In this document: in pieces, positions 687 through 15,811 of the stretch
How positions within the stretch are numbered: position 1 is the first letter of the stretch
Layout: each line of letters opens with the position of its first letter
DNA from: Candidatus Atribacteria bacterium
GTDB lineage: Bacteria > Atribacterota > Phoenicimicrobiia > Phoenicimicrobiales > Stramentimicrobiaceae
DNA: 38,492 bases
Direction of reading: 5' to 3'
Assembly (NCBI GenBank): GCA_016934875.1
Contig: JAFGSC010000277.1
Span: forward strand, 1 to 38,492
Made by a program: the position numbers and the translations under genes
The notes under the pieces: model-generated
What the model saw: only the letters and a program-made list of their open reading frames with translations
The model's database searches: none
Told to the model about the DNA's origin: nothing

Positions 687-1949
687 TCATTTTAGTAACC
701 ATTTCCAGCAAGGTATAATATTTATCTTGTATCCTTTATAATTAATTTCCTGTTCATCATCATTGGTAATAATTATGCCTTCTTTTATATTTAAATAATT
801 TAAAGCTTCAACCAAACCTTTAATTTCCCTTTCTCTGTTTAAATCGGAAAATTCAAAAGCAATCTGATATACTTCATAGCTTTGATTGTTTTTAACAATA
901 AAATCACAAGCATATTTCTCATTATAATAAAACAATTCACCATATTTTGATAGCTCATTAGCGACAAGGTTTTCTAATAGCCATCCTTTATTACCTGAAA
1001 ATTGAAAAGATATTTTTTGAAAAAAAGCATTATCTATTATATATATTTTTTTTTTATTTGCTAATTGTTTTTTTAGACTAAAATCAAATTTACCTACTTG
1101 TGTTATAAAAAATGTTTGTTCGAGGTAATGGATATAATTTTTTATTGTAACAGAACTTTCAATATCAGTAATGCGTGTTAATGTTCGATAGCTAAAAAGA
1201 TTACAAATATTTGAAATAAGATAATGATATAGCTCCCGCATTGGTTTAACCATTGTAATACCATATCTTATTGCTATATCTTTTAATATTATATCTTCAT
1301 AAATCCGGTATATTATTTCATCAACCTGAAAATTTAAATATTCAGGCATGCCCCCATTCATTAGATATATTTCAAATTCATTTTTTATTATGGCTTTACC
1401 TTTTGGAAGGTATAAACTTTCATTCGCAATATCTATTTCTTTAAACTTAAGATATTCATTAAAAGAAAAAGGATACAAGCTAATATCTACATGCCTGCCA
1501 GTTAATTTTGTTGATATTTCGCTGCTTAATAAATTCGCATTTGAGCCGGTTATAAAAAATTTATATCCTTCATCATTTAAACGCCTTACATAAGTTTCAA
1601 AGTTTTTATTTTGTTGTATCTCATCTAAAAAAATTGTTTTCTTTTCACCAAATAATTCCATCTGGGTTTCAAGAATTACAGAAAATGATTCAGCAGGAAA
1701 ATTAATTAATCGCTCATCCTCAAAATTAATATAGTAAAATTCAGTGTCATTATAGTATTTTTGAATAATTTGCCTAAGCAAAGTTGACTTACCACATCTT
1801 CTTAAGCCTTTTATTACAACTACATGCGGAATTGAAATTATACTACTTATTTGTTCAAGTGCGGTACGGGTTATACCTGGTTTTTTTAATAGTATACTTT
1901 GCCTTTGCTCAATAATAATTTGTTTCAGAAATTCCTTAGAAATATTCAT
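687..1949 (-). CDS. AAA+ ATPase, AAA_14/DUF4143-like (COG1373-type), function unknown
   Basis: 420-aa ORF. Walker A is GLRRCGKST and Walker B-like is IFLDEIQ. The C-terminal ...CDFIV...YQIAFEFSDLNREREIKGL is typical of this family. Confidence 0.8.
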   Translation of the reverse strand: MNISKEFLKQIIIEQRQSILLKKPGITRTALEQISSIISIPHVVVIKGLRRCGKSTLLRQIIQKYYNDTEFYYINFEDERLINFPAESFSVILETQMELFGEKKTIFLDEIQQNKNFETYVRRLNDEGYKFFITGSNANLLSSEISTKLTGRHVDISLYPFSFNEYLKFKEIDIANESLYLPKGKAIIKNEFEIYLMNGGMPEYLNFQVDEIIYRIYEDIILKDIAIRYGITMVKPMRELYHYLISNICNLFSYRTLTRITDIESSVTIKNYIHYLEQTFFITQVGKFDFSLKKQLANKKKIYIIDNAFFQKISFQFSGNKGWLLENLVANELSKYGELFYYNEKYACDFIVKNNQSYEVYQIAFEFSDLNREREIKGLVEALNYLNIKEGIIITNDDEQEINYKGYKINIIPCWKWLLK

Positions 1950-1968
1950 TTTGTTTTATTATAATAAA

Positions 1969-1976
1969 CAAAAATA
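1969..1976 (-). promoter_or_regulatory. Candidate Bacteroidota -7 box (TAnnTTTG)
   Basis: The minus strand reads TATTTTTG, about 20 nt upstream of the ATG at 1949. Confidence 0.35.
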
Positions 1977-2030
1977 CATAAATTGTTTAATCTAATTAAA
2001 CAAAATCTAATTTGTTTTAAAATAAGGGGA

Positions 2031-2130
2031 TAGATGAGTGGAAGAGAAAGAAGGATTATTTGCAGAATTTTTCCTTTGGGTTTTACCACAAAGCACACAA
2101 TGAAGCACAAAGATAATGATTGAACTAACC
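2031..2130. repeat. Composite repeat: GAGTGA-rich tract, four-helix-bundle tail motif and a solo CACAAAG arm
   Basis: GATGAGTGGAAGAGAAAGAAGGATTATTTGCAGAATTTTTC, then TTTTACCACAAAGCACACAATGAAGCACAAAG. It matches 8771-8850 and 10385-10465 in the same order. Confidence 0.6.
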
Positions 2131-2211
2131 CACCTACATCAAAATTACGGTGGACAAGCCTGGCTTTCCCGCCTTAAGCTTGACAAGCTCTTTAATAAGG
2201 GATTAAAACAA

Positions 2212-2243
2212 CCCCCCCGCCCCTCCCGCCAAAGGCGGGACAG
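2212..2243. repeat. GC-rich palindromic (REP-like) unit, diverged relative of the units inside fnlC
   Basis: CCCCCCCGCCCCTCCCGCCAAAGGCGGGACAG with stem CCCGCC/GGCGGG. The minus-strand peptide is CPAFGGRGGG, compared with CPPLAGAGGG in fnlC. Confidence 0.55.
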
Positions 2244-2350
2244 GCTTTTTTATAAGGGGGAATGCCAACTACCAGGATGAAGCATTTATTTTTACTATTA
2301 AAACAATAAGCTAAAATTAAATCCAAAGTTACTTTTACACACGAAAGTAT

Positions 2351-2507
2351 GAGGCTGTCTAAAAAGTCTTTTTCTAACATGATTTGTCATGTTGAACGAT
2401 AGTTAAACATCTCTTATTCAGATATATAGATTACTTCCTTCGGTCATGAGAAAAGGTTCTTCACTACCATTCAGAATGACAAGAAAAGCGACCTTTTAGA
2501 CAGCCTC
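2351..2507. repeat. Nested inverted-repeat element (~157 bp)
   Basis: Outer arms GAGGCTGTCTAAAAAG (2351-2366) and CTTTTAGACAGCCTC (2493-2507) are near-perfect complements. Inner arms 2386-2408 and 2455-2480 pair at about 16 of 23 positions. Confidence 0.6.
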
Positions 2508-2602
2508 TAGGGGGTTATACTTTTTAGGGAACGAAATGCAAGCAAGGTTTGCAGGCCATTTAAAATAGTTCACGATATTGTAAAAAACAAAAATCTAAAA
2601 AC

Positions 2603-2714
2603 CTCCCATTTTCTCACTCTCCCAATACTCATCTCTCACTTTCTCAATTTCCCTCTCACCCTCTCATATTCCCACTTTCTCACAATCCCATCTTCTCACC
2701 CTCTCCCCTCTCAC
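2603..2714. repeat. CTCAC/CTCTC low-complexity tract directly 3' of the DUF354 paralog
   Basis: Runs of TCTCAC, CTCTCAC and CCTCTC. A similar tract lies at 10787-10880 behind the other DUF354 gene. Its reverse complement, GAGTGA-rich tracts, occurs at about 490-530, 2031-2050, 6871-7020, 8745-8790 and 10355-10400. Confidence 0.55.
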
Positions 2715-3830
2715 CTAAAACTTTCCTGGTAATCGGGGTTTTCCCCTGTTCACTGAAGCCTTTGGCGAAGGTGAATTCATTTTCTCATAACTTCCGGGAT
2801 AATTTTCGATGAACCAGACGAGAAATTCAGTTACATTTATCGAATCCTCAAGCATGATTTTTCTTTTGGTTTTAGAATCTCCGATTACATTTTTATCGTC
2901 TGCCAGTGACAAAGCTTTTGAAACAGCCATTTCCTGACCTGCTTCAGAAAGGTCGAATTTGTATAGCAAACCATAGGTTTCTGAAAGCTCTTCCAGGTAA
3001 CCAAGCTGCATATGGGTAGCACACACCGACGGCACACCCAAAACTGCCGCCTCTGCAGCCATCGTAGGGCTTTCACCTATGAACAACGATGCAAAGGCCA
3101 GTGCATGGTGCATCTTTTCCGGTGGCAAAAAAGTACGGTAAGGCTGAAGCTCTTTAATTAAAGGTCCTTCTGAGGAAATATACACCTTTAGATTTTTTGA
3201 TAGTGTTCTAACCAACTTTATCTTATGCTTTTCTGAAAAGCCCGAATAACCTTTATCGTGTAAAGCATTAAAGGCAACAAACCTGATGATGCAATACGGT
3301 TCTTCAGGATTTAAGCCGTTTTCAGATACAATCTTTTTATCAGGTTGAAATACGGCAGGGTGCAGATACGCAAGCTCTTTGAAGCCTTTAAGACTTACCT
3401 GTGACAAAGAAAGCTTTTTTTGAAAACAGGAAGGGACAAGGATCGCGGAACTAAGGTTGCCGGTGATTTTGTGAATCCGGGTTGCTGCTTCGGTATCTGC
3501 GCAGGTAATGGTTTTTTTACGGCATAACCAGCCTGCCAGCACCGCATAAGGTGACTCAAAGCTGAGTATTAATTCTATCCTGTTCTTACGGATAATATTC
3601 AGCAGGATAAAGACTTTTTTGAAAATTCTGAAAACCGCTTTTACACGATTACCAGCCGGAGACCTGCCGGTTGATATAAAGGGAATGGAATATGCCTTAA
3701 GCAATACATGGGTAATATCTTTATCAGTGGCAGTTACAAAAATTTTGTGCCCTTTCTCTTTCAACTGAGCGATAACATGTTTGAATGCATGTGCATACGA
3801 AGGGTGGTTGATGTCGAAGAGTATGGTCAT
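2715..3830 (-). CDS. DUF354 family protein (GT-B-like), diverged paralog of 10898-11959; 3' end frame-shifted by a 31-nt insertion
   Basis: 371-aa ORF. The N-terminus ILFDINHPSYAHAFKHVIAQLKEKGHKIFVTATDKDIT matches the DUF354 pattern and the paralog FDVGHPGQVHQFKHVYWELEKIGWECIFVAKDKDIT. See the finding at 2748-2778. Confidence 0.75.
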   Translation of the reverse strand: MTILFDINHPSYAHAFKHVIAQLKEKGHKIFVTATDKDITHVLLKAYSIPFISTGRSPAGNRVKAVFRIFKKVFILLNIIRKNRIELILSFESPYAVLAGWLCRKKTITCADTEAATRIHKITGNLSSAILVPSCFQKKLSLSQVSLKGFKELAYLHPAVFQPDKKIVSENGLNPEEPYCIIRFVAFNALHDKGYSGFSEKHKIKLVRTLSKNLKVYISSEGPLIKELQPYRTFLPPEKMHHALAFASLFIGESPTMAAEAAVLGVPSVCATHMQLGYLEELSETYGLLYKFDLSEAGQEMAVSKALSLADDKNVIGDSKTKRKIMLEDSINVTEFLVWFIENYPGSYEKMNSPSPKASVNRGKPRLPGKF

Positions 3831-3901
3831 GATTTTGGGAAATATCTGAATAAAATGAGAGAAGGATATGGAGAAGTAAACAGTGAGTGAAAGGGTAAAG
3901 A

Positions 3902-3937
3902 AAATTATTTGAAGAATTTATCGGGATTTTTCATCAT
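3902..3937 (-). repeat. Relic 3' end of a four-helix-bundle gene
   Basis: The minus strand reads ATGATGAAAAATCCCGATAAATTCTTCAAATAA = MMKNPDKFFK*. Confidence 0.45.
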
Positions 3938-4025
3938 TAAGATTAATTGACCACAATTCAAAACCATCTCAACGGAGTAACTAAATATTTAACTATCAAT
4001 CTTTAAACGAAATTTAATTCAAATT

Positions 4026-5153
4026 TCATGTTAAATTTCGGCGGCACCAAAACTCGAAAAAAGGATCAATAAATTCGGGTTTTTTTTCGAAAAAATCAAT
4101 AATTTCCTTCATCTCAAGCGATTGTTTTAGTCGCTGCACATTTCCTGTTGTCCCGAGATTATATTTTTTTATTACTTCTTTAGATGTCAGCGCTATTTCT
4201 CCTGCTAATATCGCACGCAATAAATTTAATTGAAGGGAGGTAAGGTTTTCAATATCGCGGACATACATAATCCCATTGTAAAGAAATATTTCCTCTATTG
4301 CATTTTCAATTGTTTCATCATTCACTTCTTTATCGGTATTAATAAATACCTGATGTGCGAGTTGTTGTATATAATATGGTTGATTTTGTGCAATTTCGAT
4401 TATTTTCTTTATTAAATCAACCGAAATAATCCGGTCAGATTTTTCAAATGAAGTTTTAATATGGTCAATCCAATGTGATTCTTTTATTTTTGTCAGATAC
4501 AGCATATCGCCGAAACGATAAAACGGCAACGATTGGCTTTGAAAGAGCTCGTTTATTAAATGTCTTTTACTCCCGTAAAGGCAATAACTTACATTTGTAT
4601 GATATTGCCAAACCGAACGAAGTTTTTGCTGAAAAGATATTCCTTCTGATATTTGACTTATTTTTTGAAATTCATCTACACATATTACCATTCTTATTTG
4701 CTTTTTTAAAGCTACTTTTTCGGGAAGGTTCAAAATTTCAGCAAAAGGGACTTCATTATTTTGATATTCGAATTTTATTTTAAAATCATTTACCGGATCT
4801 ACCCCAAAAGAAATTATTGGAATAACCCCTTTTATAAAATTCTTTGCAATATTTGCCCATTCTTCAATTTTACCAGATGATTTTTTTATTACCCGGGTTG
4901 CCAATGCTTCATAAAACTCTTTTTCACTATTAATTGCAAACATATCTATAGAGCAGACTTTTATTTTCTTGTTTTGCTTTTCAGTAACTTCAGCTGCTTT
5001 CTTTACCAATGAACTTTTGCCCCATCTGCGGGGAGAAACAATCATGGTATTGAGCCCCGAAGCAAAATTTGATGATAACCTTTTCACTTCATCCGTCCGG
5101 TTAATAAAAAATGACCCCGAAACAATTTTGCCAAATGAAAATGGAGTTTCCAT
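4026..5153 (-). CDS. P-loop ATPase (Arch_ATPase/AAA-like ATP-binding protein), function unknown
   Basis: 375-aa ORF. Walker A is SPRRWGKSSLV and Walker B is MVICVDEFQKI. Confidence 0.75.
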   Translation of the reverse strand: METPFSFGKIVSGSFFINRTDEVKRLSSNFASGLNTMIVSPRRWGKSSLVKKAAEVTEKQNKKIKVCSIDMFAINSEKEFYEALATRVIKKSSGKIEEWANIAKNFIKGVIPIISFGVDPVNDFKIKFEYQNNEVPFAEILNLPEKVALKKQIRMVICVDEFQKISQISEGISFQQKLRSVWQYHTNVSYCLYGSKRHLINELFQSQSLPFYRFGDMLYLTKIKESHWIDHIKTSFEKSDRIISVDLIKKIIEIAQNQPYYIQQLAHQVFINTDKEVNDETIENAIEEIFLYNGIMYVRDIENLTSLQLNLLRAILAGEIALTSKEVIKKYNLGTTGNVQRLKQSLEMKEIIDFFEKKPEFIDPFFEFWCRRNLT

Positions 5154-5167
5154 AATATTTTATTCAA

Positions 5168-5185
5168 TTATGCATATTCGCATAA
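5168..5185. promoter_or_regulatory. Palindrome TTATGC-ATATTC-GCATAA between the candidate -7 box and the ATG; possible operator
   Basis: 6-bp arms are perfectly complementary. It lies 15 nt upstream of the ATG at 5153 and just downstream of the -7 box. Confidence 0.25.
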
Positions 5186-5187
5186 TG

Positions 5188-5195
5188 CAAATATA
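5188..5195 (-). promoter_or_regulatory. Candidate -7 box (TAnnTTTG)
   Basis: The minus strand reads TATATTTG, about 35 nt upstream of the ATG at 5153. Confidence 0.4.
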
Positions 5196-5627
5196 GATAA
5201 AATAGCAAAGAAGTCACAAAAATAATGAAATACAATACCCCGTATCGCCTAACACCTAAAGTCTTTCATTATCCTACCCGATACCTAGGCTGCTTTTTGC
5301 CTGGTAGCGGACTGCAACAAAAACAATTTCACCACAGGGCACACTAAAAGAGACAAAGCCTTCAGCATAATACCAAAAAATCTAAAATTATATAAACCAA
5401 CTGCCAGTTGACTTCTGCATATTGACAGGCATGCCTGTGATTTCTCCGTATAGCGCGCGTTTAACGCAGTGTAAAGCGTGCCTGATGTTGTTAACTTTGT
5501 TATATTAACTGCAACTGACTGAAATATATACAAATGAGTTGACAGAAAAGAAACTACCCGTCCGTTCAGGAGGGTAACCAACAAAAACCGGTCTATCTGT
5601 TATGTTGAAAAGGATAAATTTAGTGAT

Positions 5628-6788
5628 TTAATAACCCAAGTCAGCATTTAATAAATACTTCCAACCTGATATTTCGATACCATCTGATCTTTTTTGTTCA
5701 ATTTCACCGGCATATAATATTTTTCCCTGCTTCAGCCCTGATATTTTTTGCCAAAAATGCAATCCTTTGAAATATTCAGGCGTAATTGTTTTACCTGCCT
5801 TTATTTCAACCGGAATCAAACCTTCCGGTTTTTCAATGATGAGATCAACTTCATGGCCTGTATTATCTCTCCAGAAATAAAAATTTTGATTTATTCCCAG
5901 ATTATAACTCCTTTTTAAAAAATCACTTATTATGAAATTTTCGAACATACTACCCGCCAACGGGTGTAATTTTAATTGTTCAATGGTGTGTATGCCCAGT
6001 AAATTACATACTAAACCAGTATCGTAAAAATATATTTTTGGCATTTTAACAATCCGTTTGTTAAAATTTTTATAATGCGGTTGCAGCCTAAATATAATGA
6101 AACTGCTTTCCAGTATTCCAATCCATGATGCTATAGTTTTATTGTCAACACCTGTTTCTATGGCAAGACTATTCATATTTAATAACTGGCCTGTCCTGCC
6201 GGCACAAAGTTTTACAAACCGGTCAAAAACATTTAAATCTGAAATATTCTTTATTTGCCTGACATCTCTTCCAATATATGTCCGTATATAATTAGTTTGC
6301 CAGGTATATGGATCAACGGGCTGGTCGTAAATAGCAGGATAAAATCCTTTTATCATCAGATGATATAAATCCATTTCTGAAATATCAGAAATTTCTGAAA
6401 TTGAAAATGGAAGCAGGTATAAATAAGCAATTCTTCCGGCAAGACTTTGTGATATATTTTCCTGCAGCAGAAAATTGTTTGAACCGGTAATAATAAATCT
6501 CCCCGGGGTATTCACTTCATCAAGTACCTGCTGTATATAGGAAAAAATTTCAGGTACCCTTTGGGCTTCATCAATTATTGCCCCATTTGAATATTGTGCC
6601 AGAAACCCTCTTGGATCATCGATTGCAAATCTTCTGGAATCGGGATTTTCAAGATTTACATACGACAGATTCCGGAAAACATGCCTGGCAAGAGTGGTTT
6701 TCCCAGATTGACGAGGCCCAACTAATGCGACAGCTTTAAATTGCTTTGATAAACTTATTAATCTTTTTTCAGCTTCTCTTTTTATCAT
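5628..6788 (-). CDS. AAA+ ATPase, AAA_14/DUF4143-like, with a C-terminal PD-(D/E)xK-like motif
   Basis: 386-aa ORF. Walker A is GPRQSGKTT and Walker B-like is AIIDEAQ. The C-terminus is GHEVDLIIEK...PVEIKAGKT (D...E-x-K). Confidence 0.8.
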   Translation of the reverse strand: MIKREAEKRLISLSKQFKAVALVGPRQSGKTTLARHVFRNLSYVNLENPDSRRFAIDDPRGFLAQYSNGAIIDEAQRVPEIFSYIQQVLDEVNTPGRFIITGSNNFLLQENISQSLAGRIAYLYLLPFSISEISDISEMDLYHLMIKGFYPAIYDQPVDPYTWQTNYIRTYIGRDVRQIKNISDLNVFDRFVKLCAGRTGQLLNMNSLAIETGVDNKTIASWIGILESSFIIFRLQPHYKNFNKRIVKMPKIYFYDTGLVCNLLGIHTIEQLKLHPLAGSMFENFIISDFLKRSYNLGINQNFYFWRDNTGHEVDLIIEKPEGLIPVEIKAGKTITPEYFKGLHFWQKISGLKQGKILYAGEIEQKRSDGIEISGWKYLLNADLGY

Positions 6789-6870
6789 AAAGCAAATTTA
6801 CAATAATGGAATTAGATTCCAAAATTGTAATAGATTTAAACCTTTATTGCTTATTTGCGCCAGAAACTGA

Positions 6871-7054
6871 AGGGTGATAGGTGGGTAGTGAGCAATGAGA
6901 GGTGAGTGTTGAAGAAAAAGAAGGAATTTATCCGGATTGTTCATTTTGAAGATGGGAAAAGGGGAAGATGAGCGATGAGCGGTGAGTAGTGAGTGATAAG
7001 AGTTGAGTGGAAGTGTAAGAAGGGTTTGCAGAATTTATCCAGATTGTTCATTAT
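6871..7054. repeat. Two tandem units of GAGTGA-rich tract plus four-helix-bundle tail motif
   Basis: Unit 1 ends ...GGAATTTATCCGGATTGTTCATTTTGAAGATGG (6923-6955). Unit 2 ends ...GGGTTTGCAGAATTTATCCAGATTGTTCATTATGG (7022-7056). Confidence 0.6.
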
Positions 7055-7213
7055 GGAAATAAGCATTTTACGGACTTCATTGTATTCGTTCACTATTTCT
7101 TCATACGTATTGATATCCAAATAATTACAATTTTTTGAATAATCCAGCCAAACCTCTGTTTCGTATTCTTCACCAAGGGCATCGCTAAGTTTGCTTACAA
7201 AAGATTTAATACC
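7030..7213 (-). pseudogene. C-terminal fragment (~60 codons) of a four-helix-bundle protein gene (23S rRNA intervening sequence protein family, PF05635-like)
   Basis: The minus-strand frame reads GIKSFVSKLSDALGEEYETEVWLDYSKNCNYLDINTYEEIVNEYNEVRKMLISIMNNLDKFCK. The E-x-E-T-x-x-WL and KML motifs are typical of the family. There is no N-terminal half and no start codon. It begins right after the stop of the upstream gene. Confidence 0.6.
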
Positions 7214-7227
7214 TTAAAAAGATGCAT

Positions 7228-8610
7228 TTATTTTACATCACCGGATGAATTAATCACCTGCTCAGGAGTAAAAACAATAATATCATTTTTAATTTTTGTT
7301 GGTAATTCTTTTAAAAATAATACTTTATGAACTTTTTTTACTTTTCCTGATACCTGAAAGCCTTCAACTTTTTTCTCTAAATTCTGGATCAAAGCATTTA
7401 CATTAATGTTAGATGACCATTTAGCCTCTGCAATTATCAGTTCTGTTCCATCATTTGATGAAGCAATTATATCAATTTCTGATTGCTGTTTGTGGATATT
7501 CGTTCCCCAGCATCTTTTACCCGGATTAAATAGTTTTTCAGGAAATAAAAATGGAATGGAATTCCGGCACAACTCTTCCCAATTTGAACCATAATGCATG
7601 GGAAGCTGTGGAGCGACAATCTCTTCAAAAATCCGGCTTCCAATACCAATCTCAATTGCTGACTTATTTGGTACAACAAATTTGTAATAGAAACTTATAA
7701 AAGGATCGTTTATTTTGTATAATGTTTTCTTAGCGTTTTTATCGTTAAGGCCAAAAGGGATTTCTCTTTTTAAATACCCTAATTCTATTAACTTGTTTAA
7801 CGGGCGGTTTAAATGTGTTGATGGTTTAGCAATTCTTGATGCAACTTCTGATAAGCGGTTTGCCCCTGAAGCTATAATAGAAATTATGGTTGACATCTGG
7901 ACAATATCATTCGTATCATCAAGAAATAAACGGAAAGGCTCTTCATATAATAATCCATTTACATCGAACAGTTGATTTATTACAGCCTCTTTAAGCGATT
8001 GCTCTTTTTCCCGTATTTCCCAGTAGCGCGGAACGCCACCCCATACGCTAAACTCTTCAACAGCTTCAATATATGAACATTGCAGGGCTTCTTTAATCCA
8101 AAAAATATTCATCGGGCCAATTTTCAATATTATATCAGCCCTACCATAAAGAGGCGCAGTATAATCCATAACCAGTTTATGCATCATTTGTTGCGATGAT
8201 CCGCATACAACCAAATGATATTTTAGATTATCGCGCGAATCAAATATTTTCTGAAACAAGCTCGGCAACTCAGGTGCATTTTTTACCAGGTAAGGAAACT
8301 CATCAATGATTAAAACAAACTTTTCATCAGAATGCTGGTTTAGCATATAAAATACACTTTCCCAATCGGGGTATTTTACAGAATCAAAACCCGAAAACCG
8401 CGATGAAAGGGTTTTTACAAAACTTTCAATTTGCATGGTTTTTTCGCGCTGGTCGGCAACAAAATAAAGGGTTTTATTTCCTTTTATTTGCTGTAGCAGC
8501 CTGGTTTTCCCAAGCCTCCTCCTGCCATAAACAACAATAAGCCTTGCTTCATCAAAAGAAAGCGATTTGTTAATTCCTGCTATTTCTTTTTTCCTGTTTA
8601 AGAATTTCAT
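7228..8610 (-). CDS. ATPase with DUF234-like C-terminal nuclease-fold domain (Arch_ATPase + DUF234 architecture)
   Basis: 460-aa ORF. Walker A is GRRRLGKTRLL and Walker B is LIIDEFPYL. The C-terminus is SEIDIIASSNDGTELIIAEAKWS (D...E-A-K). Confidence 0.8.
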   Translation of the reverse strand: MKFLNRKKEIAGINKSLSFDEARLIVVYGRRRLGKTRLLQQIKGNKTLYFVADQREKTMQIESFVKTLSSRFSGFDSVKYPDWESVFYMLNQHSDEKFVLIIDEFPYLVKNAPELPSLFQKIFDSRDNLKYHLVVCGSSQQMMHKLVMDYTAPLYGRADIILKIGPMNIFWIKEALQCSYIEAVEEFSVWGGVPRYWEIREKEQSLKEAVINQLFDVNGLLYEEPFRLFLDDTNDIVQMSTIISIIASGANRLSEVASRIAKPSTHLNRPLNKLIELGYLKREIPFGLNDKNAKKTLYKINDPFISFYYKFVVPNKSAIEIGIGSRIFEEIVAPQLPMHYGSNWEELCRNSIPFLFPEKLFNPGKRCWGTNIHKQQSEIDIIASSNDGTELIIAEAKWSSNINVNALIQNLEKKVEGFQVSGKVKKVHKVLFLKELPTKIKNDIIVFTPEQVINSSGDVK

Positions 8611-8628
8611 TTAATTTATCATGTTTTG

Positions 8629-8636
8629 CAAACATA
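8629..8636 (-). promoter_or_regulatory. Candidate -7 box (TAnnTTTG)
   Basis: The minus strand reads TATGTTTG, 19 nt upstream of the ATG at 8610. Confidence 0.4.
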
Positions 8637-8757
8637 ATGTTTTTATTGCATAATATAATACATTAAAGTGAAAATACAGGGAAATAGTATGGTGAGGAGA
8701 TGGAAATAATTATATAGACCAACTGTCCGGTAATTTCGGCAAAGCAAGCGATGAGTG

Positions 8758-8992
8758 AAATGAGCGGTGAGAGATGAGTGGAAGAGAAAGGAGGATTATT
8801 TACAGAATTTTTCAGGGGGGTTTTACCGTAAAACACACAAAAAACAAACACAGATATATTATTAGTTACCAAACCCTTTGTGTGAACTCTGTGAACTTTG
8901 TGGTTAAAAAAAAAGAAAATACACCTACAGACCGGGCATAAAACCTAACGCCTAATACCTAAAAGCCTAACACCAAAACCGCATTTTGGTGT
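8758..8992. repeat. Direct repeat copy 1 (~230 bp) on the 3' side of the AbiE pair
   Basis: Aligns along its length with 10378-10598. Shared order is TGAGCGGTGAGAG..GGATTATTTRCAGAATTTTTCAGGGG..TTTTACCGTAAAACACACAAA..hairpin..GACCGGGYATAAAACCTAACGCCTAATACCTAAARGCCTAACACCAAAACCG. It contains hairpin 8821-8907. Confidence 0.8.
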
Positions 8993-9014
8993 GTTTTAAA
9001 CTGCATGAAAAAAA

Positions 9015-9713
9015 TTAACTAAGGATTGGAAATTCAAAATACATTTTTAATAACAGAATAGTTTCCTGTTTCAACTTATGCTTTACAAAGTTTTTGAGAT
9101 CAGGATCAACCAATTCACCTAATCCACCTAAAAGCGCAGAGGGTTTTACTTTTTCAATTTTTGAAATACATTGCAGCAGGTATTCTTTAAACTCTTTATT
9201 CATTCTCTGTTCAACAATGGCTTTATTTACAGGGGTTTTTTGCTGCATAAAATAATAAATATCAAAAATATCGCGGTTTGTGAAAACATTTCTGTCTAAC
9301 AAAGCGCATAATTTGTGAGCAAACATATCCGGTTTTTTCATCACATTCATGATAATACCCAGATAATTCTTAGATTCATAACTATCCGGAAACACTCTGT
9401 TTGAAACTTCAATTTTAAGATTACGCTCATGTGCCCCATAATCCAACACCAGCACCAGACCAAAGTATTTCATAGCTTCGTCTCTGATGGCACCATAATT
9501 CTTAAGAATTGACCTGATTTTATCGAATACATACTCACTTCTTTCTTTATCTAAAAGATTAAAGTCAAGGTCAACAGAAAAACGGGGAAGCCCATAAAAA
9601 AGCATTTGCGCAGTGCCGCCCTTAAATCCTAAAGCAGTAGAAAGTTCAATATCTGAAAAAATCTCCTTTAGTATTGATACCAGAAAGAATTTATGTTTAT
9701 TGATGTCAAGCAT
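9015..9713 (-). CDS. abiEii: Nucleotidyltransferase AbiEii/AbiGii-family toxin (DUF1814)
   Basis: 232-aa ORF. The motif GGTAQMLFYGLPRFSVDLDF is characteristic. It overlaps the upstream antitoxin-like gene by 8 nt (ATGCTTGA). Confidence 0.8.
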   Translation of the reverse strand: MLDINKHKFFLVSILKEIFSDIELSTALGFKGGTAQMLFYGLPRFSVDLDFNLLDKERSEYVFDKIRSILKNYGAIRDEAMKYFGLVLVLDYGAHERNLKIEVSNRVFPDSYESKNYLGIIMNVMKKPDMFAHKLCALLDRNVFTNRDIFDIYYFMQQKTPVNKAIVEQRMNKEFKEYLLQCISKIEKVKPSALLGGLGELVDPDLKNFVKHKLKQETILLLKMYFEFPILS

Positions 9714-10275
9714 TTTTAAACATTTTTAATACCCTTTTTTCCAATTCCTTTGATTGGTATAAAACCAGCATTTTCATTATTGATTCTCTGTTCAGGCCAA
9801 GCAAAGAATCAAAATGAAAATTTTTATTAAGATAATTAGTATCCAGGAAGGCCCTCTCGGGAGAGGCAATATTTATCCCGTTCTTTCCACGGTTTATGCC
9901 AACAGCATTGTATAAAACAGGATTTTTTATCTTGCGGTAAACAAGAAAATGCCCGTCAATATCAATGGTACGGCTTAAATAACTTACCAGGGTTATGTTC
10001 GTACTGTATTGAAATATTATTCCGGCTTTTTGTAAAACATATTCGAGAGAAATATACGATGGTGAGTTAACTTTACATGCCAGCTCTTCCGATAAATAGT
10101 CTTCTTTGACATATATTCCCTTTCTTGGATTTCTCAATTTATTTGTTTGCACATAATAATGAATTCTTTGCTTAAGCCGCTTCAATTCGGGAACATTTAA
10201 TAAAAGGGCAATCTCCTTTAATGTGAAAACAGTCCTGCTATCTTTATAAATTTCAAAAATGAAATTTGAACTCAT
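9706..10275 (-). CDS. abiEi: AbiEi-family antitoxin-like protein (type IV TA)
   Basis: 189-aa ORF immediately upstream of, and overlapping, abiEii. The call rests on size and position; the N-terminal region is HTH-like. No search was possible. Confidence 0.6.
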   Translation of the reverse strand: MSSNFIFEIYKDSRTVFTLKEIALLLNVPELKRLKQRIHYYVQTNKLRNPRKGIYVKEDYLSEELACKVNSPSYISLEYVLQKAGIIFQYSTNITLVSYLSRTIDIDGHFLVYRKIKNPVLYNAVGINRGKNGINIASPERAFLDTNYLNKNFHFDSLLGLNRESIMKMLVLYQSKELEKRVLKMFKNA

Positions 10276-10324
10276 GTTGAATTAATTTAAACCAAAGGTT
10301 AGCTTTTTTCAAACCTTTAGTTTA

Positions 10325-10332
10325 CAAATATA
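10325..10332 (-). promoter_or_regulatory. Candidate -7 box (TAnnTTTG) for the abiEi-abiEii operon
   Basis: The minus strand reads TATATTTG, 50 nt upstream of the ATG at 10275. Confidence 0.4.
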
Positions 10333-10377
10333 CTTATTTATTTTGAAGATGGAAAAATGACAGGAGAGAGATGAGAG

Positions 10378-10598
10378 GTGAGCGGTGAGAGTTGAAGAGA
10401 AAAGAGGATTATTTGCAGAATTTTTCAGGGGAGTTTTACCGTAAAACACACAAAGAACAAACAAGGATATACCATTAATTACCCCAAACTCTTTGTGTAA
10501 ACTCTGTGAACTTTGTAACTAAAATAAAAAGAAAATACACCTTCAGACCGGGTATAAAACCTAACGCCTAATACCTAAAGGCCTAACACCAAAACCGT
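10378..10598. repeat. Direct repeat copy 2 (~220 bp) on the 5' side of the AbiE pair
   Basis: See 8758-8992. It contains hairpin 10433-10519 and tail motif 10405-10425. Confidence 0.8.
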
Positions 10599-10599
10599 T

Positions 10600-10776
10600 T
10601 TTTGCCCATGCTTCTGAAATAATTGATGTTACTGACCTTGACGAAAGTTGTAATTAATGGGTTAAAGAATATTTCTCTTCCTTAGGAAAGCTTTTTGTTA
10701 TCTCAAATATCTTCATGGCAAGCTTATATGCCTTTTGATAGACGATCAAATCCCTGAAACCATTAATCTGAGCCAT
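10600..10776 (-). pseudogene. N-terminal fragment of a four-helix-bundle protein gene with an in-frame stop, truncated by inserted repeat DNA
   Basis: The minus strand from the ATG at 10776 reads MAQINGFRDLIVYQKAYKLAMKIFEITKSFPKEEKYSLTH*LQLSSRSVTSIISEAWAKNGF. The F-x-DL-x-V(W/Y)QKA...FPKEE-x-YSLT..SSRSV...AEAW pattern is typical of PF05635. TAA sits where Gln is expected. Similarity stops near 10600. Confidence 0.65.
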
Positions 10777-10786
10777 AACCTGACAA

Positions 10787-10880
10787 CCACTCACCTCTCA
10801 CCTCTCCACTCCCTTCTTTAAGCTTTATGCTTTACGCTCTTCTCCTCCCCCACCTTTCTCCGCCCACTTTCCCCTTTTAT
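10787..10880. repeat. CTCAC/CTCC low-complexity tract between DUF354 and the four-helix-bundle relic
   Basis: CCACTCACCTCTCACCTCTCCACTCCC...CTCCTCCCCCACCTTTCTCC. It is an approximate reverse complement of GAGAGAGATGAGAGGTGAGCGGTGAGAG at 10355-10390. Confidence 0.5.
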
Positions 10881-10897
10881 TTTTTATCTTTTGTCTT

Positions 10898-11959
10898 TCA
10901 CCTAAACCTATCCTGGTAATCCGGGTTTTCTTTTATTATCCTCAAGCTATCGGGATAGTTTTCGATGAACCAGACAATGAATTTAACAGGATTAATTTTC
11001 TGACTAATATATTTGGAATGATTTCTTGTTTTGTCAGAAAAACCTGAAATGATTAGTTTTTGAATTTCATTCAAGTTTGTAGTCTGAAATAATAATCCAA
11101 AATCAGATTGTTCTTTTAAATAGCCCATAATCGGTAAAGGATTTATATAAATCACTGGCGTATTAAGGCAGGCTGCCTCAGATGCCATTGTGCCTCCTTC
11201 TCCAATATAAAATGAAGCTTCCTTTAGAATAGAATGAATATGAATTGGATTTATTTGTATCTTGTGATCATGTAATTCTTTAGGCAAAGGACCTTCAGAT
11301 GAAATAAAAACTTTATATTGACTTTTCATAATTTCAACAAGACGAATTTTTTCATCCCATGACATATGTCTTATACCAACATCATGGTGAGCTTTCCATG
11401 AAACAAATCTAATAAGGCAATATTTAGAATTTGCCGGAATTTCTAATAAAGCATAAGGATCAATACTTGGTTTAAAAATATCTGGGTGCAAATAAAACAA
11501 TTCAATATTGCTATCATATTTTATGTGATTCTTACCCAGATTATTATAATATGTTTTTCCGGTAAACTTAATGTCCACGAATGGTATGGTCAATTTATGA
11601 AGTTTTACTGCATGTTCTGTATCTGAAAATCCTATATTAATAATTTTTAGAAGTTTAGAAATATGTCCACTATGAATTGAAAAGCGGTTAAGTATAAAGT
11701 CTGGTTTAAAGTTTTTTACGATTAAATAAAAATTCCAATCATTTCGTGGAACTTGAATAATCTTATTTAACAAACCTTTTCTGGACTCAGATAGTCTGAA
11801 ATAATCTAATTTATACTCTTTTAGTAAATCAATCGTAATATCTTTATCTTTAGCAACAAAAATGCACTCCCACCCTATTTTTTCCAATTCCCAGTAAACA
11901 TGTTTAAATTGGTGAACCTGGCCAGGATGACCAACATCAAAAACAATTCGATTTTTCAT
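10898..11959 (-). CDS. DUF354 family protein (GT-B-like), last gene of the polysaccharide operon
   Basis: 353-aa ORF. The N-terminal DUF354 pattern is FDVGHPGQVHQFKHVYWELEKIGWECIFVAKDKDIT. Its start abuts the stop of the upstream gene. Confidence 0.75.
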   Translation of the reverse strand: MKNRIVFDVGHPGQVHQFKHVYWELEKIGWECIFVAKDKDITIDLLKEYKLDYFRLSESRKGLLNKIIQVPRNDWNFYLIVKNFKPDFILNRFSIHSGHISKLLKIINIGFSDTEHAVKLHKLTIPFVDIKFTGKTYYNNLGKNHIKYDSNIELFYLHPDIFKPSIDPYALLEIPANSKYCLIRFVSWKAHHDVGIRHMSWDEKIRLVEIMKSQYKVFISSEGPLPKELHDHKIQINPIHIHSILKEASFYIGEGGTMASEAACLNTPVIYINPLPIMGYLKEQSDFGLLFQTTNLNEIQKLIISGFSDKTRNHSKYISQKINPVKFIVWFIENYPDSLRIIKENPDYQDRFR

Positions 11960-13099
11960 TTATCTTGTTCTGATAAGATTTAATAAATATAGTTTTTCAT
12001 ATAACCAGGGTTTCATGTCATCATGCGCATATACTGCGTTTTCGCAAGGCTTGATTTTCCTGTTCCAATGCTTATGGCCCTTTAAAAGAAGTTGTAACCT
12101 AACTGGTATATCGGTAAGAACATGTAAAAATGAAGCTTTGGTGAAACCTTTCACCGAATTAATTGTCTTGCCGTTAAGCATATCGTAATAGCTTTTCAGA
12201 AAAGGGGTTCCGGCTTTATTGGCAATAGCGTGCCATTTCCAGGTACGGGTATTTACTTCTAAAAATTTGAATACGCCGTCTCTTATATCCCTTTTGAATT
12301 CTACTTCACAAAGTCCGTTATATTTTGCAGTACCTAAAAGCTTTTCAGCGTATACCAATATTTCGGGAACTTCAACAACTTCGGCATATGTTGTAGCATT
12401 ACCAAAATCAATAGGGTGCTGACGCATACGACATGCCGTTAATGAAACAAATGATTTGCCATTTAAAAATAAAAAGCAGGCAGAATATTGATTTACCCCT
12501 GAACCGGGGATGATTTCCTGAATAATGATTTCCTCGGCAGGGATAATTTTTAAAGCTTTCCGGTAATTATTCAGCAATTCATTATAATTTCGGCATAAAA
12601 AGACTTTTTTACGTACTTTCCTGTAAAATTCATGCATTACCGCAGGCTTTACAATACACGGGAAAGTGAGTTCATCAGGCGATATGTCTTGCTCAGAGGA
12701 AGGATACCATGTTTTTGGAAAAGGTATATTAATTTCCTGAGCCAGTTTATACGCATTACATTTATTGTAGAAAGTATTAACCACATCCCATTTGTCAGTA
12801 CTTACTATGAAATATTTTTCTAATTCAGGCTTATTGATGCTCAATAATTTCACATGGTAATCGTTGGTGGGGAAAATTATCCATCCAGCGTATTTTTTAT
12901 CCACTCCCAACTTTAAAAGAAGCGTGATGATTTCAGCATCGGCCGACTTTATAAATGCAATACAGTATTTAGAATGCCGTGCAATGTTTTTGGTAGTATT
13001 GTCAATGACTAAAGCATTAATTCCGTGCCTGCCGAGTATACGGACAATGCCCAGGGCCTGAATATGGCCTCCCAGTACTATTATGCCTTTAGTTGACAT
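11960..13099 (-). CDS. ATP-grasp domain protein (carboxylate-amine ligase-like)
   Basis: 379-aa ORF. The N-terminal Rossmann-like segment is IIVLGGHIQALGIVRILGRHG. The central part FPCIVKPA...IIQEIIPG...EVEFKRD...FLEVNTR is ATP-grasp-like. Confidence 0.7.
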   Translation of the reverse strand: MSTKGIIVLGGHIQALGIVRILGRHGINALVIDNTTKNIARHSKYCIAFIKSADAEIITLLLKLGVDKKYAGWIIFPTNDYHVKLLSINKPELEKYFIVSTDKWDVVNTFYNKCNAYKLAQEINIPFPKTWYPSSEQDISPDELTFPCIVKPAVMHEFYRKVRKKVFLCRNYNELLNNYRKALKIIPAEEIIIQEIIPGSGVNQYSACFLFLNGKSFVSLTACRMRQHPIDFGNATTYAEVVEVPEILVYAEKLLGTAKYNGLCEVEFKRDIRDGVFKFLEVNTRTWKWHAIANKAGTPFLKSYYDMLNGKTINSVKGFTKASFLHVLTDIPVRLQLLLKGHKHWNRKIKPCENAVYAHDDMKPWLYEKLYLLNLIRTR

Positions 13100-14048
13100 T
13101 ACCCATCACCTGTTTGTAAATTGCAATAATCTTTTCTGCTACAGTCTCTGAATCAAGCCCAAGTTCCAATATCCTGTCCCTACCGTTTAAATTGCCTTTA
13201 TATTTTAATGCTTCTGAAATGCCTTCTGCCAAAGCAGCAGGATTTGAATCACAAACATAGTAACCCGGCAAATTCTTAATATTCTCTTTAACATCACCCA
13301 CATCTGTGCTCACAACCGGCAGATTGCACGCCATTGCTTCCTTTACCACATTAACGCTGCCTTCGCGTTTTGATGTTAACAGTAATACATCAGCAGCATT
13401 CATATAATACGGTATTTTTTCATTCGTGATATTAAAAACGGGCATCAATTCTATATTCTTATCTTCAAGGTGCTCAATAGCCTGCAGCGCTAAACTGAAG
13501 TTTTTTTCATGCCGTGCCGGGTTAGCTACAAATATCACCAGTTTTTTTCCCTGGTTGAATTGTATTACATTTCGGGCTTCAGCTTTTGGTATAGGTTTAA
13601 ACCTGGATATATCCACACCGTTTGGTATCACCTCTGCATTTTTTAATGCAAGTCTTTCTTTCATTGTTTTCGTTTTTACGATAGTAACTTGCCAACAATA
13701 CAAAGAAAATAAACGTGTAATACAATGCAGGTAAAACGGTTTATAAGCATCTGAACCCAATAAAGAAACAACCATAGGAAACCTGCCAGCCAGGGTTGCT
13801 GCAAAAGCACTCAGGCTATAATGGGCATGAAGTAAATCATATTTTTCTTTTTTTATTTTCTCTCGAATTAAGAAAATCCCTTTCAGATAACCAGAAAAGC
13901 CAGTATCTAAAGTAAAATATTGAATTTCTATCCCTTGTTTGGTAATGGATTTGCCCTGATTTTTTATCAGTTCGCTTATATCGCCATTTCGACCGCTTGA
14001 AATAAATAAGATTTTCAAGATTTGTTTATTAAATATTTTGAATACCAA
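13089..14048 (-). CDS. Glycosyltransferase family 4 (GT-B, Glycos_transf_1)
   Basis: 319-aa ORF. The E-x7-E region is LLTSKREGSVNVVKEAMACNLPVVSTDVGD. Confidence 0.8.
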   Translation of the reverse strand: MVFKIFNKQILKILFISSGRNGDISELIKNQGKSITKQGIEIQYFTLDTGFSGYLKGIFLIREKIKKEKYDLLHAHYSLSAFAATLAGRFPMVVSLLGSDAYKPFYLHCITRLFSLYCWQVTIVKTKTMKERLALKNAEVIPNGVDISRFKPIPKAEARNVIQFNQGKKLVIFVANPARHEKNFSLALQAIEHLEDKNIELMPVFNITNEKIPYYMNAADVLLLTSKREGSVNVVKEAMACNLPVVSTDVGDVKENIKNLPGYYVCDSNPAALAEGISEALKYKGNLNGRDRILELGLDSETVAEKIIAIYKQVMGNVN

Positions 14049-15808
14049 TTACTCCAACTAAGTGCGTTTATTAATGTATCATTTATTTTTTGATTCTCAT
14101 TATTTATAAAAAATTCATCTGCCAGGCAATATGAATTATTTAGTTTATTTAAAGCTTTTACATGATTAAAAGGATCAGGATCGAACCCTTTCTTGGATAT
14201 AGTATTCATCTTTTTAATTAAGAGCCCTGCAACACGACCTAATGGATTTAGAAACCAGCTAATAGGGAATCCTCTATCTGAAGTAAAACGAGCAAGTTCA
14301 CTATTATTTATAACCATTATTTCAGCATAGAGTTTTATTAGCTGAATTCTTACAAAAGGATTTTTCTCTAAAAAAGTATAATGACCACCATAAAATGGGG
14401 TATTTATGATAGTTTCAATAAACTCAGCATCAATAAATGGCGAGTAATTATATATATAAGAAGAATATGAGGCAGTTTCAGATCCAAAATATTTCCGTTC
14501 AATATTTGTAAGAAGATAATGATAAAACCTATAAGCCAATGAAACTGATTTATCATGAATGATTTCATTATTATACAATGAATCGCAAAAATGATCAAAT
14601 GATATAAAACGCTTTACCCAGGGATTTTTGCTAAAAAAATCAAAATATATTTTTTTTAAAGCATCTTCAAAATATAAATCACCTTTAAAAAGATTTAGAA
14701 CATGTTCATTATATACTGAACTACTTCCCTGAATAATTTTTAATATATTGCTGCCACAATTACCAGATATAACCATTCGGGTTTTTTGTGACAAAATCTT
14801 TGCCATTAGTATATAATGACCTCTGTTTGCAGCGCGCGTTGCACCAGATAAATATGATGTTTCAGTTGCCAGTTCACCGTATGAATTTATAAACTCTTGA
14901 TCAAGCAAAACAGGAATATGTTTAAAACCAAATTTAGTTTTAAGTTTTCTGGCAATATTCATATCCAGGTTATTATCTTTACCATAGGTATAGAGGAAAT
15001 AATCCAATTTTTTGTTTTTTGTTAAATATGATAAAACCAAACGGCCATCCCAGCCCCCGGTAATTGAACAACCAAATGGTTTATCAATTGAAGTTATTCT
15101 AATAATTGCTCTTTCAAGCGCGTCACTAACGAGCTTTTTACCTTTTTTTAAGTCAAGGGTTGGGCTATTTAATAACCATAAATGATTATTATATTTATTT
15201 AATTTCCAACGACCATTTTCTGTCTTAATTATTGATGCTGCCGGAAGCAACTTTACATCTTTAAGATAAGTGCTGTCATTTATAGAATAATTAAAAATTA
15301 AATATTGCAAAAGGCTGCTTTTATCTATTTCTGAAACAAAAGAATTTAAATCAATAAATGATTGAATACGTGATGAGAAGTAAAGAAGACTACCCTTCAA
15401 AGAGTAATATATTGGCATCATTCCGAATAAACTATTAAAAAGATAATAGCCTCTTTTTTTATCAAAAATAAAAATTACAAAATTCCCTGTAATATTATCA
15501 ACGAATTTTTCTTGCTGTTTATCCCATTTTTCAAATAGTATCTCTGATTTAGATGATTCACATTCAAGTGAATTTCTAAAAAAAAGCTCACCCCAGACAA
15601 AAATCTTTATCATTTCGTTTTTTGAACATAATACTTTTGGAGTTTTTCCGGCTAATTCACCTAAACCAACAAAACCGGAAGTATTTATTCTGGTTACAAC
15701 CTTTTCTGTACAATTATTCACCAGGATGCAACCAAAAAAAGTATTAAATTCTTTTTCTGAGATATCAATATTTCCATCCGTTTTAATAATTCCAGCAATA
15801 CCAGACAT
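14015..15808 (-). CDS. Asparagine synthetase B-like protein with a non-canonical N-terminal nucleophile (Ser) and a divergent PP-loop
   Basis: 597-aa ORF. The N-terminus is MSGIAGI, where canonical proteins have MCGI. The PP-loop position reads SITGGWDGR, where SGGLDSS is expected. Confidence 0.65.
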   Translation of the reverse strand: MSGIAGIIKTDGNIDISEKEFNTFFGCILVNNCTEKVVTRINTSGFVGLGELAGKTPKVLCSKNEMIKIFVWGELFFRNSLECESSKSEILFEKWDKQQEKFVDNITGNFVIFIFDKKRGYYLFNSLFGMMPIYYSLKGSLLYFSSRIQSFIDLNSFVSEIDKSSLLQYLIFNYSINDSTYLKDVKLLPAASIIKTENGRWKLNKYNNHLWLLNSPTLDLKKGKKLVSDALERAIIRITSIDKPFGCSITGGWDGRLVLSYLTKNKKLDYFLYTYGKDNNLDMNIARKLKTKFGFKHIPVLLDQEFINSYGELATETSYLSGATRAANRGHYILMAKILSQKTRMVISGNCGSNILKIIQGSSSVYNEHVLNLFKGDLYFEDALKKIYFDFFSKNPWVKRFISFDHFCDSLYNNEIIHDKSVSLAYRFYHYLLTNIERKYFGSETASYSSYIYNYSPFIDAEFIETIINTPFYGGHYTFLEKNPFVRIQLIKLYAEIMVINNSELARFTSDRGFPISWFLNPLGRVAGLLIKKMNTISKKGFDPDPFNHVKALNKLNNSYCLADEFFINNENQKINDTLINALSWSNWYSKYLINKS

Positions 15809-15811
15809 AGC

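Follow-up and report, generated by a model that had tools for sequence, protein, structure and literature searches.

The DUF234 (COG1672) and DUF4143 (COG1373) domains were placed in the PD-(D/E)XK superfamily in 2012 (PMC3424549), and the ATPases carrying them are catalogued as the candidate defence families PDC-S27 and PDC-S01, respectively, which were nominated through guilt-by-embedding in BREX, DISARM, and type I restriction-modification (RM) operons, with no experimental test (bioRxiv 10.1101/2024.01.29.577857). In a survey from 2026, S01 and S27 were described as ATPases fused to PD-(D/E)xK, and S01 was ranked as the fourth most common prokaryotic defence (PMC12988326). Here, we describe an island of at least 11 kb within a contig of 38,492 nucleotides (JAFGSC010000277.1 of the assembly GCA_016934875.1, Candidatus Atribacteria bacterium; the whole contig is hereafter called the window), in which one PDC-S27 gene (S27), two PDC-S01 genes (S01a and S01b), a gene of a further ATPase (the third ATPase), and an abiEi/abiEii pair are located at the edge of a surface-polysaccharide locus. 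We consider it probable that this is an accessory island of toxin-antitoxin (TA) and defence-type genes, whose ATPase-nucleases act on foreign DNA. The gene list, motifs, promoter boxes, and coordinates given in an earlier reading of the bare DNA letters (the original prediction) were all found in place, on the minus strand, and its label of a defence-like accessory island is supported by the gene content, protein architecture, and comparative context. What did not stand was the suggestion of an undescribed ATPase module: PADLOC matches S27, S01a, and S01b over their full length, and as they are catalogued as PDC-S01 and PDC-S27 and nominated by embedding, the families are described but unvalidated. 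The island is thus not a new kind of system. The searches with PADLOC and profile models that had been proposed for the encoded proteins recognized AbiE, S27, S01a, and S01b, and gave no PADLOC match for the third ATPase.

The S27 protein matched the Pfam domains ATPase_2 (77.3 bits) and DUF234 (51.9 bits), as well as the PDC-S27 model PDLC04984 (6.9e-48, positions 3–449 of 474). No substitution occurs at its residues G34, K35, D103, E104, E345, D380, E395, and K397 across 35 homologs (45–58% identity). The AlphaFold (AF2) model of S27, with a predicted local distance difference test (pLDDT) score of 92.4, contains a C-terminal alpha-beta-beta-beta-alpha-beta core, whose helix bears E345, whose second strand bears D380, and whose third strand bears E395-x-K397; with the four residues so placed, the arrangement is that of a canonical PD-(D/E)xK site. 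The "D...EAK" motif noticed originally in the DUF234 ATPase is therefore D380...E395-A-K397, invariant among the homologs and fitting the nuclease core. Sequence searches of solved structures gave only a weak match to 2qen, and Foldseek, with matches governed by the AAA+ module, superposed the N-terminal part (about 350 aa) on 2qen, 2fna, and Orc1/Cdc6.

In S01a, the AAA_14 and DUF4143 domains scored 100 and 173 bits, respectively, and the PADLOC model PDLC04790 was matched at 6.9e-103. Residues K30, D73, E74, E283, D315, E328, and K330 are shared by all 34 sequences compared, some of which are only 24–43% identical, and the "D...EIK" motif of the AAA_14/DUF4143 ATPase corresponds to D315...E328-I-K330. 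No solved structure was found for S01a by sequence search. In both S27 and S01a, an Orc1/Cdc6-like AAA+ module is joined to a winged helix and, at the C-terminus, to a PD-(D/E)xK nuclease.

The fourth ATPase noted beyond the second DUF354 gene (687–1949) is S01b, which combines AAA_14 (133 bits) with DUF4143 (61 bits) and matches PDLC04787 over the full length (2.6e-105); 9708 representative homologs were found at E ≤ 1e-3. An alignment of 51 sequences (S01b, 48 library representatives, one metagenome homolog, and S01a) revealed a non-canonical motif, E326..D349..Q362..R374-E375. Nearly all of the 50 aligned members of the PDLC04787 subfamily have Gln at the position of the ExK Glu and lack Lys at +2, so that Qx[C/S/T/A] replaces ExK, and a conserved R-E pair follows about 12 residues downstream. 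As Q362 replaces the ExK Glu, Lys is missing at +2, and R374-E375 is conserved, the active site appears to be remodelled, and S01b is, judged from its alignment, the same kind of protein as S01a with such a predicted remodelled site. The "ATPase plus PD-(D/E)xK" architecture that had been ascribed to the whole set is therefore clean in S27 and S01a, takes a variant form in S01b, and does not extend to the third ATPase.

The third Walker A/B ATPase is indeed present at 4026–5153, with Walker A at G45-K46 and Walker B at D160-E161. Its similarity to Pfam ATPase_2 is borderline (31.7 bits in hmmscan and 33.1–33.8 bits in a genome-wide search, at a cut-off of 33.2). The family comprises more than 6000 homologs of about 375 aa, and PF01637 is present on all of them among the matches listed. 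The AF2 model (pLDDT 88.4) consists of an AAA+ module, lid, and winged helix, the helices and beta-hairpin at its C-terminus being those of the winged helix. A nuclease domain is absent, i.e., there is no alpha-beta-beta-beta-alpha-beta unit in the model and no conserved D..ExK. No solved structure was found by sequence search, and with Foldseek the protein superposed over its full length on two archaeal AAA+ proteins with a C-terminal winged helix, 2fna (SSO1545; chain A, template modelling (TM) score 0.70) and 2qen (PAB2304; TM score 0.66), which, together with Orc1/Cdc6, are also the structural relatives of S27. These similarities concern the fold, as identity is 14–20%; 2fna and 2qen are structural-genomics proteins without an assigned function, and the window holds no evidence of a replication role. 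A role as a regulator or sensor that binds DNA is more likely for the third ATPase than one as an effector.

In AbiE systems, the toxin is AbiEii, a nucleotidyltransferase, and the antitoxin is AbiEi, a winged-helix protein that also represses its own operon. In the window, abiEi (9706–10275) precedes abiEii (9015–9713) with an 8-nt overlap (9706–9713). The claim of an abiEi-abiEii pair was borne out by full-length PADLOC matches of both proteins, i.e., AbiEi to PDLC02255 (3.9e-69, 185 of 186 positions) and AbiEii to PDLC02324 (8e-100, 229 of 231 positions); moreover, AbiEii matched PF08843 (DUF1814) with 75 bits (cut-off 22.5) and carries a nucleotidyltransferase motif, KGGTA...SVDLDF, of the pol-beta type G[GS]...DxD. 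Since AbiEi scored 32.7 bits against the NCBIfam equivalog, under its cut-off of 150, it represents a distant subtype. By homology, the pair is a type IV toxin-antitoxin/abortive-infection module. Its promoter includes a TATATTTG box (10325–10332) and, between the box and the start codon, an operator-like inverted repeat with 13-nt arms (10288–10300 and 10312–10324; 92% complementary), and AbiEi would most likely repress its own promoter via this repeat (10288–10324).

The ATPase genes are likewise equipped with promoters of their own. The TAnnTTTG boxes predicted on the minus strand at 1969, 5188, 8629, and 10325 were recovered and a fifth, at 6793, was added, so that a box lies 4–50 nt upstream of the ATG in all five transcription units; across the entire window, there is no enrichment of the motif (57 occurrences observed, 65 expected). 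The boxes of the individual ATPase genes are TATTTTTG (1969–1976) for S01b, TATATTTG (5188–5195) for the third ATPase, TAAATTTG (6793–6800) for S01a, and TATGTTTG (8629–8636) for S27. Inverted repeats of 13–24 nt overlap or abut the boxes in four of the five units: besides that of abiE, these are a palindrome at 1948–2006 with 24-nt arms (88% complementary) for S01b, an imperfect palindrome at 5156–5204 for the third ATPase, and a palindrome with 15-nt arms at 6798–6830 for S01a. As the ATPases contain winged-helix domains, self-repression at these palindromes may reasonably be presumed, also for S27 and S01a, with the caveat that palindromes are easily found in AT-rich DNA.

The window corresponds to one contig (C320) of a fragmented metagenome-assembled genome (MAG) of 1.97 Mb (354 contigs, 68% complete, GC content 35.4%), and the top homologs of its proteins carry the names Bacteroidales, Bacteroidia, or Bacteroidota. 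Every sizeable open reading frame (ORF) between 687 and 38212 is on the minus strand. The co-directional polysaccharide locus occupies about 27 kb (12–38 kb) and encodes GT1, GT2, and GT4 glycosyltransferases, two flippase-type proteins, epimerases/dehydratases, methyltransferases, and ATP-grasp and AsnB-like proteins. The distal border of the island is missing from the contig. The GC composition of the island is a mosaic, with 0.25–0.27 in S01b, 0.39–0.42 in DUF354b, and 0.31–0.36 elsewhere (genome, 0.354). The features of the island and its borders are collected in Table 1.

Table 1. Features of the island and its borders, ordered by position in the window.
Feature	Position	Strand	Evidence and remarks
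4HB relic, heptad and hairpin repeats up to the contig end	1–686		sequence, repeat search, translation
S01b with promoter palindrome (AAA_14 + DUF4143, 420 aa)	687–2006	-	PADLOC PDC-S01; beyond the interval of the original prediction
Junction	2020–2714	-	GTGAG tract 2580–2714, inverted-repeat element 2351–2507, GC-rich hairpin 2215–2240
DUF354b	2715–3830	-	Pfam PF04007 30 bits; diverged orphan paralog
Junction	3831–4025	-	4HB 3'-end relic ..MKNPDKFFK* and CTCAC tract
Third ATPase with promoter palindrome (375 aa, AAA+/winged helix)	4026–5204	-	PF01637-type
Spacer, 474 nt, including the promoter region of the third ATPase	5154–5627		sole ORF without Pfam match
S01a with promoter palindrome (AAA_14 + DUF4143, 386 aa)	5628–6830	-	Pfam, PADLOC PDC-S01
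4HB C-terminal half	7058–7207	-	PF05635 6.2e-10, profile 56–105
S27 with promoter box (ATPase_2 + winged helix-turn-helix + DUF234, 460 aa)	7228–8636	-	Pfam, PADLOC PDC-S27
Repeat copy B	8753–8988	-	same elements as copy A
abiEi/abiEii operon including promoter	9015–10332	-	PADLOC, Pfam PF08843
Repeat copy A	10364–10604	-	GTTAGG-rich stretch, CACAAAG hairpin, 4HB 3'-end relic EKFCK*, CTCAC tract
4HB (23S_rRNA_IVP) pseudogene, N-terminal half	10597–10779	-	PF05635 8.7e-14, match 10597–10755, profile 1–53, one TAA
Heptad tract, GTGAG-type (CTCAC on the plus strand)	10780–10897	-	sequence; upstream arm of inverted low-complexity tracts flanking the 4HB unit
DUF354a	10898–11959	-	Pfam PF04007 65 bits; terminal gene of the polysaccharide locus, proximal island border
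4HB, four-helix bundle.

The island lies between, and extends beyond, two DUF354 genes, of which the second had been described as strongly diverged, in agreement with the Pfam scores (Table 1) and with the 32% identity of the two proteins over 346 aa (E 4e-55). Maximum-likelihood analysis placed DUF354a with its homolog from the locus L050 (support 99/94), and DUF354b with copy 2 of L078 and with L083 at a weak support of 87/54; the terminal branch of DUF354b (1.21) is the longest in the tree (median 0.59). No promoter box was found in the 5' region of DUF354b, and the conserved tail ENPDYQESFR* (window 2715–2780) lies in another frame than the ORF, while it is in frame in the three other DUF354 paralogs of this genome. 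An insertion between a pair of DUF354 genes, as originally proposed, is plausible: of 117 DUF354 loci compared, 7 contain two such genes that are adjacent or nearly so, and in L078 an a-clade and a b-like copy follow the same order at a distance of 1.1 kb, a GT4-like glycosyltransferase gene being the only one between them. In the most economical reading, the sugar locus would formerly have run on into DUF354b, cassettes would have built up in between, and DUF354b would now be stranded and drifting. Relatives of DUF354a were found in 1 of 60 other GTDB-related genomes (39% identity), and an exact look-up returned nothing.

The comparison of the 117 DUF354 loci, drawn from genomes and metagenomes, revealed AbiE in the neighbourhood of none of them. 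Genes similar to S01 or S27 lie at a distance of up to about 7 kb from DUF354 only in L025, L037, L040, L057, and L127; in L092, there is only a weak match similar to the third ATPase, about 8 kb upstream of DUF354. As no locus has AbiE and few have S01- or S27-like genes, the interval does not form a block of conserved synteny, which agrees with its proposed accessory character. Genes with DUF4143 are present in 37 of 61 relatives, at 0–7 per genome, frequently in clusters and frequently on short contigs, with some of them truncated. Another contig of the same genome (C151; L130:1180–4513) carries PDC-S04 (Fic/Bro-N, 2.7e-162) and, behind it, two PDC-S01 genes, of which the second is truncated by the contig end. 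The defence neighbours of S01 and S27 are thus AbiE in the window and PDC-S04 on C151, and close homologs elsewhere are without them. It is worth mentioning that a further contig of this genome (C347; L131) contains four consecutive P-loop ATPase genes, including one for a 960-aa double-ATPase STAND-like protein and two of AAA_35/ATPase_2, with almost no PADLOC signal.

In L133, a locus from the same family, one S01 gene is accompanied by two MazF genes (one of them RHH-MazF), an MNT nucleotidyltransferase, Wzz, and two four-helix-bundle (4HB) genes, and in L135, from the same order, three S01 genes occur with RelB, HicB, a 4HB gene, and MBOAT/DltD-like genes. Both loci (L133:4747–8434 and L135:4030–6786) share the order 4HB gene or relic, gene of an HTH_24/MarR-like winged-helix protein of about 210–230 aa, and AAA_14/DUF4143 ATPase gene. 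Homologs of S01a were found on 388 plasmids, in many phyla; of 50,697 phage records, only 8 contain one, and these are without exception unannotated faecal contigs. Furthermore, in the JGI 3300075153 metagenome, the polysaccharide locus of one contig (that of P0245) ends in DUF354, followed directly by three AAA_14/DUF4143 genes, one of which is 83% identical to S01a. That contig is a second instance of S01 genes accumulating behind DUF354.

The cassettes are separated by junctions whose core, GAAAAATTCTGCAAATAA, encodes ..EKFCK*, the end of a 4HB gene (PF05635), and occurs in every junction repeat copy; on the minus strand, a CTCAC-rich heptad tract invariably comes next. The 4HB relics recognized within 11 kb number at least eight. 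Similar CTCAC-rich tracts had been noticed behind the DUF354 genes, and they follow both of them (2580–2714 and 10790–10897), the latter participating in an inverted repeat (10353–10389/10790–10826). The N-terminal half of the 4HB pseudogene next to DUF354a reads MAQINGFRDLIVYQKAYKLAMKIFEITKSFPKEEKYSLTH*, and between 6865 and 7057 tandem 4HB 3'-end relics and CTCAC tracts form two direct-repeat families (D2 and D3). Repeat copies A and B constitute a 240-nt direct repeat (87.5% identity) bracketing the abiE cassette, and could mediate its loss by recombination; partial copies lie at 2026–2100 and 509–563, and within the fragmented MAG the repeat was found on this contig only, so that a genome-wide repeat family was rejected. 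The junction at 2020–2714 additionally contains a solo hairpin arm, an EKFCK* relic, and a CTCAC tract (2020–2112). The 157-bp element at 2351–2507 resembles a miniature inverted-repeat transposable element, with 23-nt terminal inverted repeats (87% complementary) and a partial, about 75–84% identical copy on the contig C159. The statement that every junction consists of relic or repeat DNA proved correct for all but one of them, the exception being 5154–5627, which is neither a recognized relic nor an Rfam RNA; no Rfam match (E ≤ 0.1) was obtained for this spacer or for the junctions.

The two larger 4HB fragments cover complementary halves of the profile (1–53 and 56–105) and flank a 3.4-kb block comprising repeat A, abiE, repeat B, and S27. 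The odds that a single 4HB gene was split by insertion of this block are about even. Against it speaks that repeat A has a 4HB 3' end of its own, for which reason two separately damaged 4HB copies are the alternative, and that relics in relatives also break mid-gene, many of them near profile positions 50–70. Heptad tracts flank 4HB genes or relics in a genome-specific version, i.e., CTCACC in the window, CTCAACT in L127 (1760–3745), and CTAAACC in L051 (5540–6500). The locus L127 comprises DUF354, a 4HB 3' relic, a 4HB gene, a gene of a small membrane protein, a second 4HB gene, and an S01b-like ATPase gene (37% identity), and intact arrays of the type 4HB-gene-4HB-S01 were identified in L127, L133, and L134/G015. 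Duplicated 4HB 3'-end relics are scattered around the neighbourhood both in the window and in L127.

Among the 60 relatives, there are about 150 PF05635 matches, and 8 of 89 DUF4143 genes lie within 3.2 kb of a 4HB gene, where about 0.85 would be expected under uniform placement, a null that is naive because accessory genes cluster anyway. One might imagine that 4HB units (23S_rRNA_IVP/Avd-like) with their heptad tracts serve as a recombination scaffold for self-promoted TA and defence cassettes in Bacteroidota-type genomes, with a preferred break or insertion point in the middle of the gene, which we consider unlikely. Ordinary explanations, i.e., the clustering of accessory genes and recurrent frameshifts of 4HB genes at a mid-gene A-run, may suffice.

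Taken together, the island consists of independent, self-promoted cassettes within an array of decayed 4HB gene units, and appears to have grown by accretion at the far end of the polysaccharide locus, probably between DUF354 genes that were once close. S27 and S01a could act as nucleotide-dependent DNA-binding switches that license the nuclease against invading DNA. Several observations weigh against such a defensive role. Only AbiE among the island genes belongs to an experimentally established defence family, and when one S01 and one S27 representative were tested in E. coli B against T7, T5, and T4 in a cold-seep study, neither was among the four protective candidates (10.1101/2024.09.26.614923). 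The closest homologs of the third ATPase (63% and 58% identity) are solitary among housekeeping genes, not known defence genes, and the S01a homologs of 83% (behind DUF354) and 74% (beside an epimerase gene) identity have no recognised defence gene nearby. With regard to the accessory character itself, Pfam scans of the large ORFs of the window, a few small ones not being included, revealed no integrase, transposase, or recombinase, and the best match of DUF354a across genome and metagenome contigs reached 48% identity, with no close strain found.

The same observations could be read as those of selfish or addictive, self-regulated cargo, spread by recombination and plasmids without an anti-phage benefit to the host, and persisting by drift or because its loss is costly. 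The own promoter and palindrome of each gene, the patchy copy number (0–7) and truncated relics in relatives, the frequent plasmid-borne homologs, and the close homologs singly scattered among housekeeping genes are consistent with this, as is the outcome for S01 and S27 in the single published phage test. Moreover, S01a has homologs of 82–83% identity in other metagenomes, while none of the flanking DUF354a exceeds 48%. However, neither a mobility gene (in the large-ORF scans) nor a target-site duplication was identified, the catalytic residues of S27 and S01a are strongly conserved, the families are repeatedly embedded in BREX, DISARM, and type I RM operons, and other defence candidates are co-located with them in the same genome. 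We therefore regard purely selfish cargo as fairly unlikely.

A role of the ATPases in the surface-polysaccharide loci themselves, e.g., as DNA-binding regulators or switches of capsule expression rather than in immunity, is suggested by the three S01-type genes behind DUF354 on the P0245 contig, the S01-type gene downstream of DUF354 in L037, L040, L057, and L127, the two S01-type genes flanking an epimerase gene in L011, the proximity of S01 to Wzz in L133 and to MBOAT/DltD-like genes in L135, and the winged-helix domains in all the ATPases. Nevertheless, among the 81 DUF354 loci whose downstream sequence extends over 2 kb or more, only 4 have an S01-type gene, many copies are far from sugar loci, and a conserved nuclease active site would be unexpected for a regulator; the variable ends of polysaccharide loci are, besides, plausible general insertion hotspots. 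This makes a sugar-locus function quite improbable. Finally, although a fragmented and incomplete MAG with repeat-rich junctions would allow for it, it is extremely improbable that the gene order is an artefact of a chimeric contig joined via repeats, as these are 83–88% identical, too diverged for collapse, and the Logan assembly of the run SRR13394437, which supplied the sole near-identical contig, may derive from the same reads as the MAG, and is not a strain comparison, reproduces the order over 2366–16788 with one mismatch in 14,423 nt (99.993%), so that gross misassembly is unlikely.

The preferred interpretation thus remains a TA and defence-type island. It adds one more well-resolved case of very abundant ATPase-nuclease genes present as self-promoted single-gene cassettes beside a TA pair at the edge of a surface-polysaccharide locus, offers a compact set in which four related ATPases with a canonical, a remodelled, and no nuclease site stand side by side, and hints that arrays of 4HB genes mark places of cassette accumulation.

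Compared with the described systems, the abiE pair resembles the Lactococcus and Streptococcus agalactiae prototypes in its two overlapping genes with the antitoxin leading, its full-length model matches, the G[GS]...DxD motif, and the inverted repeat at the promoter, and differs in the low NCBIfam equivalog score of AbiEi. S27 agrees with PDC-S27 (ATPase_2 PF01637 and DUF234 PF03008; COG1672) in its full-length model match, the order AAA+, winged helix, and PD-(D/E)xK, and the invariant E, D, and ExK, but it stands alone in a cassette array, not inside an RM, BREX, or DISARM operon. Likewise, PDC-S01 (AAA_14 PF13173 and DUF4143 PF13635; COG1373) has two full-length members in the window, of which S01a possesses the canonical nuclease residues, whereas the subfamily of S01b has Qx[C/S/T/A] for ExK and the conserved downstream R-E.

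At the level of the whole locus, integron cassette arrays are similar in their head-to-tail single-gene cassettes of one orientation with recurrent hairpin-bearing junctions. However, an integron or another mobile element was rejected, since there is no recombinase match in the large ORFs and no tRNA gene was found in the window, each cassette has its own promoter, and the junctions are 4HB 3'-end relics and hairpins, not attC. Defence islands and hotspots between core genes share with the window the defence-type and TA genes arranged as independent units, a presumably variable region, the mosaic GC composition, and the relics at junctions, whereas here there is one validated system, and the borders are a polysaccharide locus and the contig end.

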